Shown: one piece after another, positions 13,201 to 20,498 of the stretch | How positions within the stretch are numbered: position 1 is the first letter of the stretch | Layout: the number at the start of each line of letters is the position of its first letter | Origin: an uncultured Prevotellaceae bacterium | Lineage (GTDB): Bacteria; Bacteroidota; Bacteroidia; Bacteroidales; Bacteroidaceae | NCBI GenBank assembly: GCA_902790625.1 | Contig: CADASP010000011.1 | Span: 9,856 to 73,855, forward strand | Reading direction: 5' to 3' | Length of the DNA stretch: 64,000 nt | The notes under the pieces: model-generated | Told to the model about the DNA's origin: nothing | The model's database searches: none | Seen by the model: only the letters and a program-made list of their open reading frames with translations | Position numbers and translations under genes: made by a program

Positions 13201-14959
13201 CGCAGATTTCGGCGTAGCCCAGGGTGAGCGTCGTCTCGCTGCAGATGGTGAGCTGGATGGCACCCTCCTCGGGCACGTCGAGGCGGAACCAGTCGTGGTC
13301 GTTCAGTGAGTTGCTGTAGTCATAGCCTAAGCGGGCATCCTTGGTGGTGCCTGACTCGATGATGGCGGCAGTGTCCCATGTGTAATTGTCGGCAGCATCG
13401 TTGGCCATGGCACAGGGGGTGAAGGTGTATTGCAGCGAATAGGTGCCGTAGCCTCCACGCAGGGGCAAATAGAGATAGTAGTCGCCAGCGGCGGCGTTGT
13501 TCAGCACGAAGGTGAGGGTGTCGCCCGGATGGTCGAGCCACTGGCCATTGCGACGGATGGTGCTGGTGCCTTCGGCATTGGGCACGCAGATTTCACCATA
13601 TCCGATGGTTAGCGTCGTTTCGCTGCTGATGGTCAGCGTAATCTTGCCTTCTTCGGGCACGTTGAGCTTGTACCAGTCGTATATGTCCTTCGTGTTGTTG
13701 TAGTCGTAGCCCAGCTGGCCCGTCACGGCGGGGCCTTGTCGCAGCGGGGTGGCCGACACCCATTCATCGTTGGGCTCTGGGTCGGCCTCGGCACTGTGGC
13801 CCGTGAAATAGGAGGTCACGGTGTAGGTGCCGTATCCTCCGCGTAGCGGCATATAGAGATAATAGGTGCCAGCCGAGACGTTGGGCGTCTCAAACACCAG
13901 GGTGCTGTCGGGATAGTCGAGCCACTGTCCGTTGCGGCGATCCACGCCGGTCTGGTCGGCATTGAGCGCGCACAGCTCGGCATAGCCGATGGTAAGTGTC
14001 GAGTTGCTGCGCGCGACGATGGTCAGCTTGCCGTCCTCGGGCACCTCGATGGAGTACCAGTCGACCACATCCTGATTGTTATTGTAGGCATAGCCCAGGT
14101 GGCTGTTCTGTAGCACACCGTCGGCAAGTGGCGTAGCCGTCTGCCACGTGTCGTTCAGCTCGGGGTCGCTGTCGGTCACAGGCGGGATGAAGCGGTAGGT
14201 GAGGTGGTAGATGCCGTAGCCGCCGCGCCGTGGCATATAGAAATAGTAGGTGCCAGCTTGGCAGTTGGGCACTTCGAACACCAGCGTGGAGTCGGGATGG
14301 TCGAGCCACTGTCCGCCACGGCGCATCACGTCGGTACCTTCGGCATTGAGGGCGCAAAGCTCCACATAGCCAACGGTGAGGGTGGGTGCGCTGCGGAATT
14401 CGAACTGCACCTTGCCGTCCTTGGGCACTTCAATTTTGAACCAGTCCACGTTGTCCACGTCGGCCGGGGCATAGGCATAGCCCATGTGGCCGCCCAGCGT
14501 CACGCCGCTCTGCAGCAGGGGGCAGTCGTCCCAGGTGGCATTGGGCGTGGGGTCGGTCTTCACCGTCGGGGCGGTGAAGACGTAGGTCAGGCGGTAGGTG
14601 CCGCTGGCCTTGTCGTTCCTGGGGTTGGCGTGCATCTTCACCTTGTAGATGCCCGGCTTCAGGTTCGGACAGTTGAACGTGCGGTTCGAGCCGTCCACCC
14701 AGCTGAAGTCACGCTGCACGTTCTCGCCGTCGACGACGGCATAGAGCGTGATGTTCTCGCCACTGATGTTGCCCAGTGGCTCATGGGTGATGGTCACCTC
14801 GCCGTCTTCAGGCAGGCTGATGGTGTACCACACGTCGTGTACGTTCTTCGACACCGCTCCTGTTTTGCTGGTGCCGCTCTCCCAGTACTGCTGTGCCATG
14901 ACCCACAAGGGCGCTGTGAGCAGCAGTACGAGTGTTGTTAGTAATTGTTTGCGTTTCAT
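10235..14959 (-). CDS. Secreted surface protein with tandem PPC/collagenase-CBD-like domains, a DPNE-type domain and a T9SS-type tail
   Basis: Signal peptide (WVMA|QQ); 128-aa repeats EPND.W..A..L..G....G.LGY.Y...D..DW....AG.YY.Y.P.RGGYG.Y; SWDPNEMVGP..Y.I.FEN; tail IYTTDGRY..LPKGVYVVGGKKFVVR. Confidence 0.85.
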   Translation of the reverse strand: MKRKQLLTTLVLLLTAPLWVMAQQYWESGTSKTGAVSKNVHDVWYTISLPEDGEVTITHEPLGNISGENITLYAVVDGENVQRDFSWVDGSNRTFNCPNLKPGIYKVKMHANPRNDKASGTYRLTYVFTAPTVKTDPTPNATWDDCPLLQSGVTLGGHMGYAYAPADVDNVDWFKIEVPKDGKVQFEFRSAPTLTVGYVELCALNAEGTDVMRRGGQWLDHPDSTLVFEVPNCQAGTYYFYMPRRGGYGIYHLTYRFIPPVTDSDPELNDTWQTATPLADGVLQNSHLGYAYNNNQDVVDWYSIEVPEDGKLTIVARSNSTLTIGYAELCALNADQTGVDRRNGQWLDYPDSTLVFETPNVSAGTYYLYMPLRGGYGTYTVTSYFTGHSAEADPEPNDEWVSATPLRQGPAVTGQLGYDYNNTKDIYDWYKLNVPEEGKITLTISSETTLTIGYGEICVPNAEGTSTIRRNGQWLDHPGDTLTFVLNNAAAGDYYLYLPLRGGYGTYSLQYTFTPCAMANDAADNYTWDTAAIIESGTTKDARLGYDYSNSLNDHDWFRLDVPEEGAIQLTICSETTLTLGYAEICVPNAEGTSTIRRDGKWLDHPGDTITFSLNNAAAGAYYLYMPHRGGYGGYTVKYDFIPCPMANDAAGNYTWDTAAIIEPSTTKEARLGYDYSNSLNDHDWFRLDVPEEGAIQLTICSEKTLTLGYAEISVPNADGTGTLRRDGQWLDHPGDTLTFKLNNAAAGAYYLYMPLRGGYGGYRITYDFIPCAIANDIAGNDSWENTTLIENGTITQGRLGYDYSNSLDNQDWYQFVMPADGSASFIIQSEKTLTLGYAEILALNADGTGTVRREGKWLDYPDSALVFKRDDLAAGTYYLYVPHRGGYGGYTVKSTFTKNPFYQQKMTNTDFANRITLQEGVPVQGTMGYAYRGNDAATEAWFDLGLMHGRQIDVTVNVESSHSLSIGVVGIYKYKGDRDDGAPILERVKDLRLERSSGTISYLDKNTEDSHYIFYMPRYSGYGGYAVTFGNPVQEGQANVSSDIAVMTGGRNTVRKGVPCENPITITNTSAQKTGKFLVSITATDNIDILGFRMPSNRGTQYLPVDSVTVLDGATCQHTIVFLVPSLDPWESYTFTMVSEGKGDIAYSRDYTEFYSGKNKIVVNSTTFAVVAILGNVEGADRHINVSDYVVHRLGDVYELTGEQRLKVSQLMDQLNDEKEQTGMAAYSVLELLKRASELCGMDLIDATCPLISLIRQHVFGWIYQTDIDDEFLDILDGKAAINDVVASWDPNEMVGPAGVGEQHYIGETQTVNYRILFENKAEAGDAAYRVRISDELDENVFDVSTVRFGETSHDGVGYNWVMKREGNKLSWDIQGIELPPNVNAPEGEGYVSFSVDLKPGLKDGTVISNKATIIFDKNLPIETNVYSNTLDLTPPVTVMASADYDPAANTIHVKCQSQDAASGVQSYLLFASHNGADYAYYGQTFAGEMDYAVENYVDGDAYSFYVLAIDNVGNTENVTPQGVQAITGINGVRFDHNATLRIYTTDGRYVGTNPANLPKGVYVVGGKKFVVR
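12375..14310 (-). repeat. Six intragenic repeats at exact 384-bp period
   Basis: ggat(g/a)gtcgagccact at 12375, 12759, 13143, 13527, 13911, 14295. Confidence 0.9.
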
Positions 14960-15087
14960 AATGATTGTTTGTTGGTGATTAATATTCGGTTGTAAAATTA
15001 GGAAATAATTGGCAAGCTGCCAAGAAATCTGTCACTTTTTTTGTCTTTGCTTCGAAAGATGCGTTCCTTTCCTCGCCAATGGTGCGT

Positions 15088-15255
15088 TCACCACCCCATG
15101 TCGTCATCGTCGTCCCACTGCTTGTTGCGGAAACTGCGCGACTCGGCGCCTGACTGGTCGCCCCAGCCGCTGGGGTCGACGCTAACGGCGTTCATGAAGG
15201 GTTCGTCGTCGACTACTATGGCACAACGTGGCATTTCGTATTTCTTCTTTTCCAT
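15088..15255 (-). CDS. 55-aa small peptide not in the ORF track (MEKKKYEMPRCAIVVDDEPFMNAVSVDPSGWGDQSGAESRSFRNKQWDDDDDMGW)
   Basis: Hand-translated open frame; ATG 12 nt after the upstream stop with GGAGGAG in between; GC-rich third positions; K-K-Y-x-x-P leader and acidic Trp-rich tail. Confidence 0.7.
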   Translation of the reverse strand: MEKKKYEMPRCAIVVDDEPFMNAVSVDPSGWGDQSGAESRSFRNKQWDDDDDMGW

Positions 15256-15267
15256 GATTGCTCCTCC

Positions 15268-17892
15268 TTATTTAATATATAGTTTCTTTCCGTTGACAAT
15301 ATAAAGGCCCTTCTTTAATGACGAATTCCGAATTCCGAATTCCGAAAGGCAGCGGCCCTGCAGGTCGTAAGCACGTTCATTGTTCATCGTTAATCGTTCT
15401 GCGTCGGCGATGGCGGTTGTCGTCTCGTCCCAAATCAGGGTGATGGGGCGTGCTACGCTGACGATGCTGGCCGTTGGAATCTGCAGATAAGCCTTGTTGG
15501 CGGGCATCTTCACGTTGGCGTCGGCCTCCTGTATCTTCACAAAGTGTCCGCCCGTGAGCATGAAGTTGGTGAAGTCGCCATCAGTAGCCAGTACATGGGT
15601 GGCGGTGGTGACGGCCACGAGGCTGTTGTCGGCGATGGCCTCGGCGGCCTCGGTGGTGGTTTCAAGAGCGAAGGTCTGCCCTGCCTCGCCGCGCAGCAGC
15701 ACGCCGGTGGCGGCGGGAATCACGTCGCCCTCGATGGCCTGGATGGCGATGGTGCTGGCATCGGCATCGAAGGCAGTGCAGTAGTAGGCGGTGAGCCCTG
15801 CGGGCACGACGACGGCCTCGTCGGCGCTGAAGGTGCCTATGCCCGAGGCGGGCACGGTGAAGGCGTAGGTGGTGGTGCCCGATTCGGTGGTGACGGTCCA
15901 GCCTCCGGGGATGCCGTTGATTTGAATTTCGTCATCATAGTCGGTCGTAGGCACTTTCACGCTCCAGTCGGTACCGTCGGCCAAGACGAAGGTGCCCGTG
16001 GCGGGCACACCGGTGAGCCAGCCGTAAGTACTGTTCTCGGCCGAGATGTCAGTGGCGAGGCACTTCACATAGTTCAGGCTGGTGCAGCCGTTGAACATCA
16101 TGCTATAGCATCCTTCTACCAAGGTCTCGGCAAGCAGGTCGGGGGCTGTCGTCAGGCTGGTGCAGCCCATGAACATCTCGGAGTAGCAGCCCTCGGCCAG
16201 GATGGGGGCTGGCAGCGCGGGGGCTGTGGCCAGGTTCTCGCAGTTCATGAAGATGCCGTCGTAGCACATGTTGGCCAGTGTGGTGGCGGGCAACGTCGGA
16301 GCCAATGTGAGCGCCGTGCAGCCCCAGAACATGAAGGTGTAGCAGCCCTCGGCCAGCGTGGTGGCCGGCAGCGCGGGGGCAGCCGTCAGTGATGTGCAGC
16401 CGTTGAACATATCGTTGTAGCAATACGCGGTCATCACCTTTGCAGGAAGCTCAGGGGCGCGTGTCAGACCAGTGCAGCCATTGAACATCGAATTGTAGCA
16501 GTAGTCGGTGAGCGTCGTAGCTGGCAGCACGATGTCCTTGGTGGGATGGTTCTTGATGGTGGTGTTCGGTTCCCATTGGTTGCAGAACAAATCGCTGAAG
16601 CAATACTCGTCGGTCAGTGTGGTCTCGGTGGCGAATGTCGTGGAGTGGAGCAGACTCATCACATTGCCATAGACGTAGCAGTCGTTGGAACAGACAAAAT
16701 AATAGTGCTCCCAGTTCTCCGAGTCGTAGCAGCTGGGGTTGTCGCCACGGAAGCTGATGACATCGTTGGCAGCCAAGGCGATGTCTTCATCCCATGTCAC
16801 CTCAGTCCAGCTTCCGTCGTTCAGCTTGTACTGGATGGGCTGGATGTACCCTGAGGGGGCGTCGCCGTAGTAATCGTACTTCACCGTGATGGTTCCTGCC
16901 TCCACGGCCTCGAAGGTCAGTGGCTCACCTGCCATGTCAGTGGCTTCGCTGGCTTCTTCCACCGTCCAGCCTTCGGGGATGCCGTCCACCTCGTTCCATT
17001 CGCCCTGCGGCCCTACTGTCCAATCGTTCATGCCTGCGGCCTTGACGAAGGTGCCCGTGGCAGCTACACCTGTCAGCCATCCACCCGTGCAGCCCTCGAT
17101 AGAGATGTCGGTGGCCAGGCACTTCACGTAGTTCAGCTTCGTGCAACCATTGAACATCCAGCTGTAGCCCTCCGAGGGAACGCTGGCAGCGGGCAACTCG
17201 GGCGCTCTCTCCAGGTTGATGCAGTTGGAGAACATCTGATGATAGCAGCCCCAGCCCAGGTCGGTGGCGGGCAGTTCTGGCGCACGCGTCAGCCCTTGGC
17301 AGCCGGAGAACATATACATATAGCCGCTGCGGGTGACGTTCATGGCTGGCAGCACGATGTCCTTCGTGGGGTGGTTCTTGATGGTGGTGTTGTCCTTGGG
17401 TGCCCAATCGTCTTCCGATACAGGAGTTGTGAACAAAAAGGCGAGGTTGATATCCATATCCCACTCCTCGTCGCCTCCAACGATGGGCAGCGTGGTGAGC
17501 GTGGGATAGCCCGTGGAGCTGATGAGGCTCATCACATTGCCATAAATATAGACATCATTGGTGGCGGTGAAACGGGTGTACTGCTCCTTAAAGCTCCATT
17601 CGTCGGGTGCCAACATGCCATAGGCAGGGTTGTCGCCTCGGAAGCGCACCTGGTCGCCAGCGGCCACGGGGATGCTGATGGGGTTGCTGCTGGCTGCAGT
17701 CCATGTGGCACCGTCCTTGCTGAATTCTATCGTCAGCAAGTTGGGGTTGACGATGTTGATCGTCCCCGCCTCCACGGCCTCGAAGGTGAGCGGCGTGGCG
17801 GTCATGTCGTCGGCCTTCGTTCCCATGGCGGTGGCCATGAGCGCGAGCAGTGAGAGCAAAATTCTCTTGAAGTAACGTTGAATTTGTTTCAT
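15268..17892 (-). CDS. Secreted BspA/TpLRR-like leucine-rich-repeat surface protein, two modules, T9SS-type tail
   Basis: Signal peptide from ATG 17892 (MKQIQRYF...TKA|DD); 26-aa repeats LPATTL..xCY..MF.GCT.L..AP; duplicated PLTFEAVEAGTI and LNYVKCLATDIS..WL.GV.ATGTFV; tail KKGLYIVNGKKLYIK. Confidence 0.85.
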   Translation of the reverse strand: MKQIQRYFKRILLSLLALMATAMGTKADDMTATPLTFEAVEAGTINIVNPNLLTIEFSKDGATWTAASSNPISIPVAAGDQVRFRGDNPAYGMLAPDEWSFKEQYTRFTATNDVYIYGNVMSLISSTGYPTLTTLPIVGGDEEWDMDINLAFLFTTPVSEDDWAPKDNTTIKNHPTKDIVLPAMNVTRSGYMYMFSGCQGLTRAPELPATDLGWGCYHQMFSNCINLERAPELPAASVPSEGYSWMFNGCTKLNYVKCLATDISIEGCTGGWLTGVAATGTFVKAAGMNDWTVGPQGEWNEVDGIPEGWTVEEASEATDMAGEPLTFEAVEAGTITVKYDYYGDAPSGYIQPIQYKLNDGSWTEVTWDEDIALAANDVISFRGDNPSCYDSENWEHYYFVCSNDCYVYGNVMSLLHSTTFATETTLTDEYCFSDLFCNQWEPNTTIKNHPTKDIVLPATTLTDYCYNSMFNGCTGLTRAPELPAKVMTAYCYNDMFNGCTSLTAAPALPATTLAEGCYTFMFWGCTALTLAPTLPATTLANMCYDGIFMNCENLATAPALPAPILAEGCYSEMFMGCTSLTTAPDLLAETLVEGCYSMMFNGCTSLNYVKCLATDISAENSTYGWLTGVPATGTFVLADGTDWSVKVPTTDYDDEIQINGIPGGWTVTTESGTTTYAFTVPASGIGTFSADEAVVVPAGLTAYYCTAFDADASTIAIQAIEGDVIPAATGVLLRGEAGQTFALETTTEAAEAIADNSLVAVTTATHVLATDGDFTNFMLTGGHFVKIQEADANVKMPANKAYLQIPTASIVSVARPITLIWDETTTAIADAERLTMNNERAYDLQGRCLSEFGIRNSSLKKGLYIVNGKKLYIK

Positions 17893-18004: not shown

Positions 18005-18035
18005 AATGCCTAATTCCACATTTTTTTGCCTTTTT

Positions 18036-18067
18036 TTTGCCCGTTCCGTATTTTTGTCGTACTTTTG
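18036..18067 (+). promoter_or_regulatory. Canonical -33/-7 promoter of the LytTR regulator gene
   Basis: TTTG (18036-18039), 20-bp spacer, TACTTTTG (18060-18067). Confidence 0.75.
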
Positions 18068-18071
18068 CAAC

Positions 18072-20498
18072 ATGCAAACAACGCGGCGAACCATCCTTTT
18101 GATGCTGGCACTCGGCTGCTGCCTTCTGATGCGGGGGCAGATGTTGAGCGACCTCACCTATCGGCGCTACACCGTGCAGGACGGTCTGCCGCAGATGCAG
18201 ACCGAACGGTTGTGGCAAGACTCGCGCGGATATATATATGTGGGTACGCTGTCGGGCTTCGTGCGCTTCGATGGCCGTGCCTTCACCCCCTTCCTCAAGG
18301 GTCGCCGCCTGAACATCGTGGGGTTTGCCGAGGTCGATGACAATGGTGCTCCCCTGCATGGCCATGGCGAGGTGAGGGCGCTGGGATTCTTCCGGCAGTG
18401 GACGGTGGACTACGACGGCGTGGAGCCGCTGCCCCTCGACGAGGATGGCCACTGGCTGCTGAACAACCTGAATGCCGGCAGCCTGCCCAACGGCTACGTG
18501 CTGATGGAGGACAGCCTGGAGCAGCAGCGGCGGCTGTGCCTGATGACGCGGCAGACCATCACCCCCGTGTTGGCACATCCACTGCTCGACACGATGACCC
18601 CCGACCGCAAGCTCTACTACGACCCCGAATCAGGCGAAGCGATAGCCCCCACAGAGCAAGGGACCTTCCTGCTGAAGCCTGACGGGGGACAGCCCACCAA
18701 ACTGTGGGACAAAACCGACGTCTACACCCTGCTGCGCACCGACTCGGCCCTGCTGGCCTTCGCCTCCGACGGCATTTATGCCTGGCAGGGCGACAGTCTG
18801 CGACTGCTGACCCAGGCCGACTGGACGGCGGCCAGCTATGGACTGACGGTGAGGAAGATACGCACGGACTGCGTGGTGGCCGACGAGCACAGCGTGTATC
18901 TTTGCGATGGCGAGGGCGTGCACCAGGTGGTGACGGGCATCAATCTCATCCGCGACGTGCTCGTCGACCGCTGGGACCGCCTGTGGGTGGCCACCTATCA
19001 GGGCGTCTACTGCTTCTTCACCCGCTGTTTCACCAATCATCAACTTGCTGACGAGAACGACATTGTGAGAGCCGTGGCCGCTTGTGGCGACGGACGACTG
19101 TTGATGGGTACGCTCAACGGCAAGCTGATGGTGCGCAGTCAGCGGGGCGCCACCACCATCGTCGACGACAATCCCGAACAGTTCTATGCCCCCAGTGCTG
19201 CCAAGGTGGGCGATGAGGTGTTCATGGCCGGCAATGGCGACGTGGTGGCCATCACCACGCATAACGACACCACCGCCACCCTGCGCTGGATAGGCTTGCC
19301 CCGCGACCGCTACCAGTTTGTGGCCTCGGCATGGGGCCGGGTCATTGTGGGCAGCCGCACCACCATCAGCGCCTACGACCCCGCCACAGCCACCATCGAC
19401 ACGCTGACCACCACCATCATACATCCGTGGTGCGCCGCACAGGATGCCAGCGGCAAGCTGTGGATAGGCAGCAGCGGGGGACTCTACTGCATCGACAAGA
19501 ACCGTCAAATGAGCAAGGTGGAATATGGCCAACAGAAACTCGTTGTCAGCGCCTTGGCCATCGACCAGCGGGGCAACATCTTCTTCGCCTCGGCCGACTC
19601 GCTCTTCTGCGTGGTCGACGGTCATGTGGCATCACTCACCCCTCAGATGCCGCAGCTCAGCGGCCACGAGGTGCGCTCGCTCCACCTGTCGCCACGGGGC
19701 TTCTTGGTGGCGGCGGTTGTCGACGGTCTGTTTGTCTGCCATGTCGACGACAAGGGTCGTCTCAGCGACCAGCGGTTCTTCAACCACCTGAATGGCTTCA
19801 CCATGACCGAACCGCTGAAGGCGGTGATGGCCGAAGAGGACGACGGCACCGTGTGGCTGCCCGGCATAGAACAGATGACCTCCTTCCGCCCCGAAGAGTT
19901 GCTGGCCTACAGCGAGGAAGACACCTACATCGCCCCGCCGCTGGCGTGGTGGCAGCACTGGTGGGTGTGGGCGCTGGTGTTGCTAACTGTGTCGCTGATG
20001 GTGTGGGCCGCCACCCGTTGGCATGAGAAGAGGGTGAACCGGAAGCGCATGGTGAAGCTGCAACGCGAGAACATCCAGCGCGAGGAGCAGATAGAGGCCA
20101 TACGCCAGAAAGCCATCGGCGAGGCCGACAGCGAGCTGGCCAAGGACATTGTGAAGATGACGGAGAAGACCTTTGCCGAGCGGCTCACCCTGCGCACCGC
20201 CAGCGGTACCGTCGTGGTGGAGGTGAAGGACATCGCCTACTTCAAGGGCGAGGGCAACTACTCGCAGCTGGTGACTTTCCACCACAACGACATGGTGCTG
20301 ATGGGCCTCGGTGCCTTGGAGAAGATGCTCAGCCCCGAGGTGTTTGTGCGTGCCGACCGCAGCACGCTGCTCAACATCCACCATGTGAGCAACCTGCTGC
20401 CCAAGCAGCGCCGCTGCATCTTCCGCTCGCCCGGTGGTCAGGAGGTGGAGACCACGCTGCTGGCACCCGCCTTCAAGCGTCTGGAGTATCTGCTGTAG
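18072..20498 (+). CDS. Membrane-spanning one-component regulator: periplasmic beta-propeller (Reg_prop-like), TM helix, LytTR DNA-binding domain
   Basis: Signal peptide; YTVQDGLPQ..LWQDSRGYIYVGT and D..G.LWIGS..GL propeller motifs; TM WWQHWWVWALVLLTVSLMVWAA; C-terminal DIAYFKGEGNYS...FVRADRSTLLN. No His-kinase or receiver motifs. Confidence 0.85.
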   Translation: MQTTRRTILLMLALGCCLLMRGQMLSDLTYRRYTVQDGLPQMQTERLWQDSRGYIYVGTLSGFVRFDGRAFTPFLKGRRLNIVGFAEVDDNGAPLHGHGEVRALGFFRQWTVDYDGVEPLPLDEDGHWLLNNLNAGSLPNGYVLMEDSLEQQRRLCLMTRQTITPVLAHPLLDTMTPDRKLYYDPESGEAIAPTEQGTFLLKPDGGQPTKLWDKTDVYTLLRTDSALLAFASDGIYAWQGDSLRLLTQADWTAASYGLTVRKIRTDCVVADEHSVYLCDGEGVHQVVTGINLIRDVLVDRWDRLWVATYQGVYCFFTRCFTNHQLADENDIVRAVAACGDGRLLMGTLNGKLMVRSQRGATTIVDDNPEQFYAPSAAKVGDEVFMAGNGDVVAITTHNDTTATLRWIGLPRDRYQFVASAWGRVIVGSRTTISAYDPATATIDTLTTTIIHPWCAAQDASGKLWIGSSGGLYCIDKNRQMSKVEYGQQKLVVSALAIDQRGNIFFASADSLFCVVDGHVASLTPQMPQLSGHEVRSLHLSPRGFLVAAVVDGLFVCHVDDKGRLSDQRFFNHLNGFTMTEPLKAVMAEEDDGTVWLPGIEQMTSFRPEELLAYSEEDTYIAPPLAWWQHWWVWALVLLTVSLMVWAATRWHEKRVNRKRMVKLQRENIQREEQIEAIRQKAIGEADSELAKDIVKMTEKTFAERLTLRTASGTVVVEVKDIAYFKGEGNYSQLVTFHHNDMVLMGLGALEKMLSPEVFVRADRSTLLNIHHVSNLLPKQRRCIFRSPGGQEVETTLLAPAFKRLEYLL

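Follow-up and report, generated by a model that had tools for sequence, protein, structure and literature searches.

A 55-codon gene behind a T9SS cargo gene in a Prevotellaceae genome: candidate precursor of an LPP-like RiPP pathway

Why should a Prevotellaceae genome place a short open reading frame, led by a strong Shine-Dalgarno (SD) sequence, directly behind the gene of a large secreted protein, and what might the product of such a frame do? The question is raised by a locus in the window analysed here, by which we mean the whole stretch of 64,000 nucleotides. It can be answered in part from the locus itself, and in larger part from the family to which the small gene belongs, from the company that this family keeps and from the enzymes that accompany it across genomes.

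The small gene and its family

The gene (P0001) lies on the minus strand at 15088..15255, stop codon included, with its ATG at 15255..15253 and its TGA at 15090..15088, and comprises 55 codons. The TAA of the upstream gene occupies 15270..15268, leaving a gap of exactly 12 nt before the ATG. An SD-like GGAGGAG (15261..15267, minus strand) abuts this TAA, and 5 nt separate it from the ATG. The first-pass annotation of the window had described a 55-aa frame 12 nt past the stop of an LRR gene, with GGAGGAG upstream, and both the translation and the gap match exactly; the end coordinate of its feature, 15267, takes in the SD. It had also called so strong an SD unusual, and the wider data agree: SD sequences are largely absent from Bacteroidota mRNAs (PMC6847099), and GGAGG was found at positions -20..-4 in 12 of 42 members of the family described below vs 51 of 3409 background ORFs (1.5%). 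In several family copies the GGAGG abuts or overlaps the stop codon of the preceding gene (TAAGGAGG, TAGGAGG). Such an SD-led gene set is rare in this phylum and is useful for studying SD sequences in Bacteroidota termination-reinitiation. P0001 shares its reading frame with the upstream gene, the two being separated by TAA and 12 nt, which is probably incidental. A read-through fusion with the LRR gene was considered and dropped, since elsewhere in the family the gaps are not divisible by three.

Searches of Pfam, NCBIfam and the ESM Atlas with the peptide returned no named family. By single-sequence search, three close relatives were recovered among 5.8e9 proteins (98, 82 and 78% identity), and no paralog in its own genome; the paralogs surfaced by HMM alone. 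The weak matches within the genus were all frames of 48-82 aa starting M-(K)KK-x-Y-x-x-P, and they sit just 3' of genes ending in ...G-x-Y-I-x-N-G-K-K-x-x-x-K. The family model, HMM A1, was built from 25 such peptides. With it, about 19 paralogs were recovered in the source genome. Of 146 high-quality genomes of the genus, 127 had matches, with at most 19-20 in any one genome; of 300 taken from the whole order, 4 did. Among 1.84e9 proteins it collects 1462 cluster representatives at E<=1e-3, the best 150 of which are mostly 48-75 aa long and matched over nearly their full length. The ratio dN/dS is 0.39 against the ortholog of the nearest species and 0.18 between two paralogs within the genome. 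Purifying selection and conserved homologs thus bear out the earlier proposal of a genuine small gene. The 55-codon gene is real, one of a large family of small acidic proteins in Prevotella that has gone unannotated; a literature search found no paper describing these peptides.

The anatomy of the family was scored on the 152 best representatives. Residue 5 or 6 is Tyr, preceded by K-K at -3 and -2 and followed by Pro at Tyr+3. The pattern Y..P occurs within the first 25 residues of 152/152, a count that is partly circular because both the HMM and the regular expression selected for it. V or I dominates at Tyr+7, +8 and +10, L and then L/M occupy +15/+16, and the small residues A and G stand at Tyr+17/+18. 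Ser follows at Tyr+19 in 107 of the 152 (70%) and at Tyr+20 in 45 (29%), and after this fixed Ser comes a stretch rich in Gly, Asp and Thr. Towards the C-terminus, a Trp is found within the last 12 residues in 136/152 (89%), and at least three Asp/Glu within the last eight in 81%; the median net charge past residue 25 is -7. No signal peptide was found in these peptides, and Cys is rare. The consensus can be written Y-I-x-P-x-x-x-V-V-x-I-....-L-L/M-A-G-S. P0001 fits this signature, with Y6, P9, S25 and the end W47-DDDDD-MG-W55; the residue right after P-x, which is I, T, M or V in most members, is Cys in P0001.

Two deflationary readings can be weighed at this point. Its shortness and its lack of a Pfam or NCBIfam match might suggest that P0001 is a chance ORF or a mis-called gene, but the family is large and under purifying selection, its synteny is fixed and it is enriched in SD sequences, which makes this practically negligible. 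It could also be that the act of translation, not the product, is what counts, a short coupled ORF protecting the 3' end of the mRNA or tuning the next gene. The tight coupling to the cargo stop, which the SD abuts or overlaps in several copies, would suit such a role, and so would a weak terminator-like hairpin with a T-rich tail (15009..15023, minus strand) that lies 3' of the ORF and before the next gene and is a consensus match alone. However, conservation is at the amino-acid level over 1462 clusters, with Tyr, Pro, Ser and the Trp-acidic tail fixed, and the dN/dS values point the same way. Moreover, the peptides are followed by housekeeping genes that have nothing in common and are variably oriented, and the RNA of the peptide region folds no better than shuffles (z = 0.39). 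We therefore consider a role of translation as such very improbable. A structured RNA or attenuator at the peptide gene, which was also considered, is unsupported by the same comparison with shuffles.

Placement behind T9SS cargo genes

The product of the upstream gene (15268..17892, minus strand; the first ATG giving a signal peptide is at 17892) begins with a signal peptide and ends in a predicted T9SS CTD; between them lie two blocks of LRR/BspA-like repeats, each repeat 23 residues long, and a pre-CTD domain. The name LRR gene given to it earlier holds as far as the repeats look LRR/BspA-like by eye, and finds no Pfam match behind it. Its tail reads YDLQGR...KGLYIVNGKKLYIK and shows motifs B (YDLQGR), D (GLYI) and E (NGKKLYIK, with a basic end), in agreement with the experimentally mapped T9SS CTDs of Prevotella intermedia (PMC11969387). 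Pfam and NCBIfam, CTD models included, gave no score on this protein, and their CTD models missed both of the window's cargo proteins that were tested. An HMM built from the proteins of relatives matched the CTD (15271..15480, minus strand) with E 4.5e-27. By motif comparison and by our own HMM, with no Pfam match, the tail is thus a predicted T9SS CTD. PorM was found in the source genome, and the product of the gene downstream of P0001 (10235..14959, start at 14959) has a CTD too, together with PPC repeats.

The CTD-coding end of the upstream gene contains a perfect 7-nt tandem repeat (CGAATTC x3.6) at 15322-15346 and a second, imperfect 7-mer array at 15374-15399. Both lie between CTD motifs B and D and encode ..SEFGIRNSS.... 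A 79%-identical ortholog in another genome (L013) has a shorter segment at this place, without the 7-mer repeat sequence. As the repeat unit of 7 nt is not divisible by three, slippage could shift the frame of the upstream gene.

Divergent from the upstream gene lies a membrane regulator with Reg_prop and LytTR domains and a periplasmic propeller (18006..20498, plus strand). The first-pass annotation had proposed P0001 as a signalling peptide sensed by this regulator. The divergent arrangement, the distance of 2.7 kb and the periplasmic propeller lend the idea some appeal. The regulator, however, is without a paralog in the genome, to be set against about 19 dispersed peptides of which this one alone lies near such a regulator, the other 18 being beside unrelated genes, and nothing in the family context points to LytTR. 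The proposal is therefore unsupported, and we regard it as highly improbable.

The context that does recur is that of the cargo. In the source genome, 119 ORFs of at least 150 aa end in a T9SS-CTD-like tail, a cargo set of unusual size. Homologs downstream of T9SS-cargo genes had been named beforehand as a check worth making, and the HMM search revealed them: 15 of the 19 paralogs follow a CTD gene on the same strand at 2-100 nt (binomial p about 5e-19). The pairing recurs in relatives and in another genus, and recent duplicates carry CTD and peptide as a pair. P0001 is predicted to be translationally coupled to its T9SS cargo gene.

These facts invite the view that the small acidic protein is not a RiPP at all but a dedicated partner of T9SS cargo, a small partner or chaperone having also been proposed in the first-pass annotation. 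It would bind the product of the upstream gene at its basic CTD or at the pre-CTD domain, and would then act as an escort, an anti-folding factor or a secretion timer, much as type III chaperones do for effectors. The position behind CTD genes, the recurrence of the pairing and the joint duplication all favour such a partner, as does the ~120-aa pre-CTD domain, since six of the eight cargo proteins that share it have a peptide. Several observations weigh on the other side. Of the 119 CTD genes, only about 17 are followed by a peptide gene, and the cargo proteins concerned have no function in common (alpha-amylase/CBM26, endonuclease I, BACON/Flg_new repeats, LRR_5). The similarity of CTDs is weakly correlated with that of the peptides (rho 0.17). 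The peptide is without a signal peptide, whereas the cargo folds in the periplasm. On balance we think a dedicated cargo partner unlikely. A narrower idea, that the peptide is the companion of the pre-CTD domain, holds in part, as 11 peptide-bearing cargo proteins are without the domain.

One genome bears on whether the pairing requires the T9SS. In the complete-looking G018 (L087-L090, G018:C3), PorM and SprA_N were not found, yet there are the kinase discussed below and four peptide hits. Two peptide ORFs were recovered there, and one of them comes after a large gene whose product ends in ...RPVFEF. Another hit, whose ORF the screen did not recover, is downstream of a gene ending in ...RPVFKF. 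Neither of these C-termini is a T9SS CTD, and a third hit precedes a signal-peptide gene. This single genome argues against strict T9SS dependence, and it counts against the cargo-partner reading as well. A larger set of 18 genomes negative for PF12081 (the first domain of PorM/GldM) was considered as T9SS-less carriers of the peptide and set aside: four of the five tested have SprA, and G018 alone lacks both. Separately, a clade of the genus (seen in G036, G149, G212 and G296; L067-L070) has no PF12081 match and has SprA. Its CTDs are of a G-L-N-I-V type, its peptides have 47-55 aa, and its kinase is matched over residues 122-293 alone. In G036 an ABC exporter comes after kinase and peptidase, and PqqD was not detected beside them.

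Candidate modifying enzymes in the genome and its relatives

The earlier statement that no modifying enzyme is nearby holds within the window; it does not hold for the genome, in which an operon with an RRE, a kinase and a signal-peptidase-like protein lies on another contig (C9; P0001 is on C11). The order of genes there is rpoD, a 149-aa secreted protein, a 295-aa protein, a 160-aa protein, PqqD, kdsA, kdsD and a PLD-type gene. The genes for the 295-aa protein, the 160-aa protein and PqqD occupy L060:9692-10576, L060:9210-9689 and L060:8938-9210, respectively. PqqD is a single gene in the source genome (PF05402, E 9e-16), and the best PDB match of its product is the lasso RRE TfuB1 (E 0.0017).

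The 295-aa P-loop protein has invariant SGTGKST and NDDNP motifs, and its match to HprK_rel_A is weak. Its AF2 model (pLDDT 93.5) has a fold that matches PEP carboxykinases best and also the HPr kinase 1knx, so that it is a putative kinase of the PEPCK/HprK superfamily. A source attaches Pfam PF27840 to this kinase family, and a curated name for the kinase may already exist. In the 160-aa protein, three boxes (SM-x-PF, HR and GDGN) are invariant, with Ser35, His74 and Asp89. Its model is closest in fold to LexA and to signal peptidases, the best matches being LexA, lambda cI, UmuD', SpsB, SipA and human SEC11C (E 2e-3 to 2e-2). The ortholog in G078 passes the Pfam cut-off for Peptidase_S24, and the S24 score of the source copy is weak; the protein is a putative S24/S26-type Ser-His-Asp peptidase. 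The source genome also has three NTP_transf_5 genes and an ortholog of the ABC exporter (38% identity, E 5e-103), all dispersed. The first gene of the operon is conserved in the genus as a signal-peptide protein of 131-149 aa (L060:10572-11018 and L071:5045-5437, both minus strand), for which no family match was found.

In relatives these enzymes draw closer together, and in two places closer to the peptide. The clearest case is L073 (in G078), where the following genes are co-directional and tightly spaced: a cargo gene, after a 3-nt gap a family peptide (20 bits against HMM A1), after a further 21 nt NTP_transf_5 (match 3e-42), and then the kinase, the S24-like peptidase, PqqD and the ABC exporter. 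Even this peptide linked to an enzyme cluster follows a cargo gene, a point in favour of a cargo partner. At L071 a pair of cargo and peptide abuts the kinase operon. NTP_transf_5 and the ABC exporter join the trio of kinase, peptidase and RRE in L073, L075, L062 and L070. Precursors adjoining enzyme clusters are nevertheless the exception: they were seen in 2 of about 10 loci examined, and in five genomes with several kinases no peptide was found on any kinase contig.

Co-occurrence across genomes also links peptide and kinase. In a single draw of 151 genomes from the genus, peptides were found in 128 of 136 kinase-positive vs 3 of 15 kinase-negative genomes, and among the PorM-positive genomes of that draw in 117/122 vs 3/11. 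The peptides thus track the kinase rather than PorM, which speaks against a role as mere partner of the cargo. Across the order, the kinase was found in all four peptide-positive genomes vs 42 of the 296 others, the kinase family being wider than the peptide family (46 vs 4 of 300). In other genera, weak peptide matches were obtained in three of five kinase-positive genomes vs none of five kinase-negative controls; in one of the former (G581), both weak matches sit behind CTD-like genes. The p-values of this co-occurrence overstate the case, because related genomes are not independent.

A proposed LPP-like pathway served in trans

The closest parallel comes from the linear polyphosphorylated peptides (LPPs) of Bacillota, including Paenibacillus (PMC13381572, Nat Commun 2026). 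The core of an LPP cluster consists of an RRE (LppB), an HprK-like kinase (LppK), a SipW-like peptidase (LppS, which uses S29, H68 and D93), an NTP transferase (LppN) and an MsbA-like exporter (LppD) (PMC13381572). The leader motif [Y/W]xxPx[L/V/I/F/A] is read by the discrete RRE. The leader follows the pattern YxxPxVLxHQxIxFET and is cut after T-1; xxS comes next, and this Ser3 of the core (= Y+18) is polyphosphorylated (PMC13381572). The RRE, kinase and peptidase, joined by NTP_transf_5 and the exporter in relatives, amount to the five-gene LPP core, which leads to an LPP-type reading of the family. The reading that we favour, with moderate confidence, is that P0001 is a dispersed LppA-like precursor of an LPP-like RiPP pathway, processed in trans.

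By analogy with LPP (PMC13381572), residues 1-22 of P0001 (15190..15255, minus strand) are the predicted leader, with KKK-Y6-E-M-P9 and an alternating hydrophobic stretch. Residues 23-55 (15091..15189, minus strand) are the predicted core, which is acidic, rich in Gly, Asp and Ser, and carries the Trp-acidic end. Ser25 (15181..15183, minus strand; = Tyr+19) would be the counterpart of LPP core Ser3 and is a candidate phospho-acceptor. In the proposed scheme, the RRE would bind the Y-x-x-P leader as an added beta-strand, by analogy with LppB. The kinase, in the manner of LppK, would phosphorylate the fixed Ser, possibly several times. The signal-peptidase-like enzyme, like LppS, would remove the leader about two residues before that Ser, just ahead of A-G-S, and the ABC exporter, by analogy with LppD, would export the acidic core with its Trp tail from the cytoplasm. 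The position of the gene 2-100 nt behind a cargo gene, with an SD that often abuts or overlaps the cargo stop, would tie the synthesis of peptide to that of cargo.

The likeness extends to several levels. Both precursors are small (35-200 aa for LPP, 45-80 aa for the family) and have a Y-x-x-P-x-hydrophobic leader; the invariant Ser, in the family a candidate acceptor, comes some 18-19 residues past the Tyr (Y+18 in LPP, Y+19 or +20 here). The five enzyme types are the same and lie together in relatives, where one cluster, L073, is headed by a family peptide. The 160-aa protein and LppS share the Ser/His/Asp boxes and an identical Ser-to-His spacing of 39 residues, as in S29-H68.

The differences are also clear. 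LPPs belong to Bacillota and have their precursor inside the cluster, whereas the present family belongs to Bacteroidota and has many precursors dispersed behind T9SS cargo. Its leader is without HQxIxFET, and hence without the FET cleavage site, although a few paralogs have H-Q near the LPP HQ position; its Ser stands one residue further from the Tyr. The RiPP-like Y-x-x-P leader reported in the first pass is thus present (Y6, P9) and the RiPP reading favoured, while the full LPP consensus is missing. The C-termini of LPP precursors are described as variable, in contrast to the conserved Trp-acidic tail found here, and the trio of the source genome lies between rpoD and kdsA without an exporter or NTP transferase alongside. 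Further facts stand against the LPP reading: the kinase reaches weak HprK scores and its best fold matches are PEPCKs; its family is wider than that of the peptides; peptides occur in the three kinase-negative genomes counted above; and most precursors are far from the enzymes.

Other RiPP classes were considered as well. Lasso peptides of the TfuB1/fusilassin and paeninodin types share the Y-x-x-P leader motif and a discrete RRE, that of the source genome being nearest to TfuB1. Paeninodin-like clusters typically have an HprK-type kinase and NTP_transf_5 as tailoring genes, and both enzyme types also occur here. In place of the lasso B2 peptidase, however, there is a signal-peptidase-like enzyme. 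A lasso peptide was rejected, as the B2 peptidase PF13471 (Transglut_core3) was not found in the 99.98%-complete source genome and no Asn-synthetase-like macrolactam cyclase gene is present in the kinase clusters inspected. A bacteriocin with a double-glycine leader (end GG, GA or GS) was likewise discarded: the C39 peptidase PF03412 was not found in the genome, and the exporters seen are without a C39 domain.

Pairs of cargo and partner genes are known from elsewhere: in Flavobacterium, T9SS cargo with a type-B CTD is paired with a cognate PorP/SprF-like gene. The likeness is that of a cargo gene followed by a dedicated partner gene of a small family. There, however, the partner is an outer-membrane beta-barrel and here a 55-aa acidic peptide, and the cargo here has short, type-A-like CTDs, as in Prevotella intermedia (PMC11969387).

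The cargo-partner and RiPP readings are compatible if the mature peptide, and not the precursor, meets the cargo. The placement behind cargo genes could serve co-expression with abundant surface proteins, or the mature peptide could act on cargo or its attachment. Quite tentatively, one may imagine a RiPP pathway wired into secretion, with a coupled precursor per cargo gene and a phosphorylated, exported peptide that would act in the periplasm on cargo or on the T9SS/attachment machinery. The Trp-acidic peptide would then be, for example, an escort for the basic CTD, an acceptor or a modifier. If this were true, the function-less LPP class would gain a role in Prevotella cell-surface assembly.

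LPPs were described in 2026, in Bacillota alone and with no known function, and the present family points to a counterpart in Bacteroidales. This counterpart would be found in most Prevotella genomes, with up to about 20 precursor genes each that gene annotators leave unnamed. Scattered precursors, coupled to T9SS cargo and served in trans by one enzyme set, would be unusual for RiPPs. In our view, the family is a concrete and testable connection between peptide modification and the secretion of surface proteins, in bacteria that are dominant in gut, rumen and mouth.

The enzyme set itself may vary. One kinase-peptidase-RRE set, in G015 (C31), is immediately preceded by two further genes, at L074:5367-6945. 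They encode a radical-SAM protein of 445 aa and a second RRE-like protein of 99 aa, and some kinase clusters may therefore add another modification.
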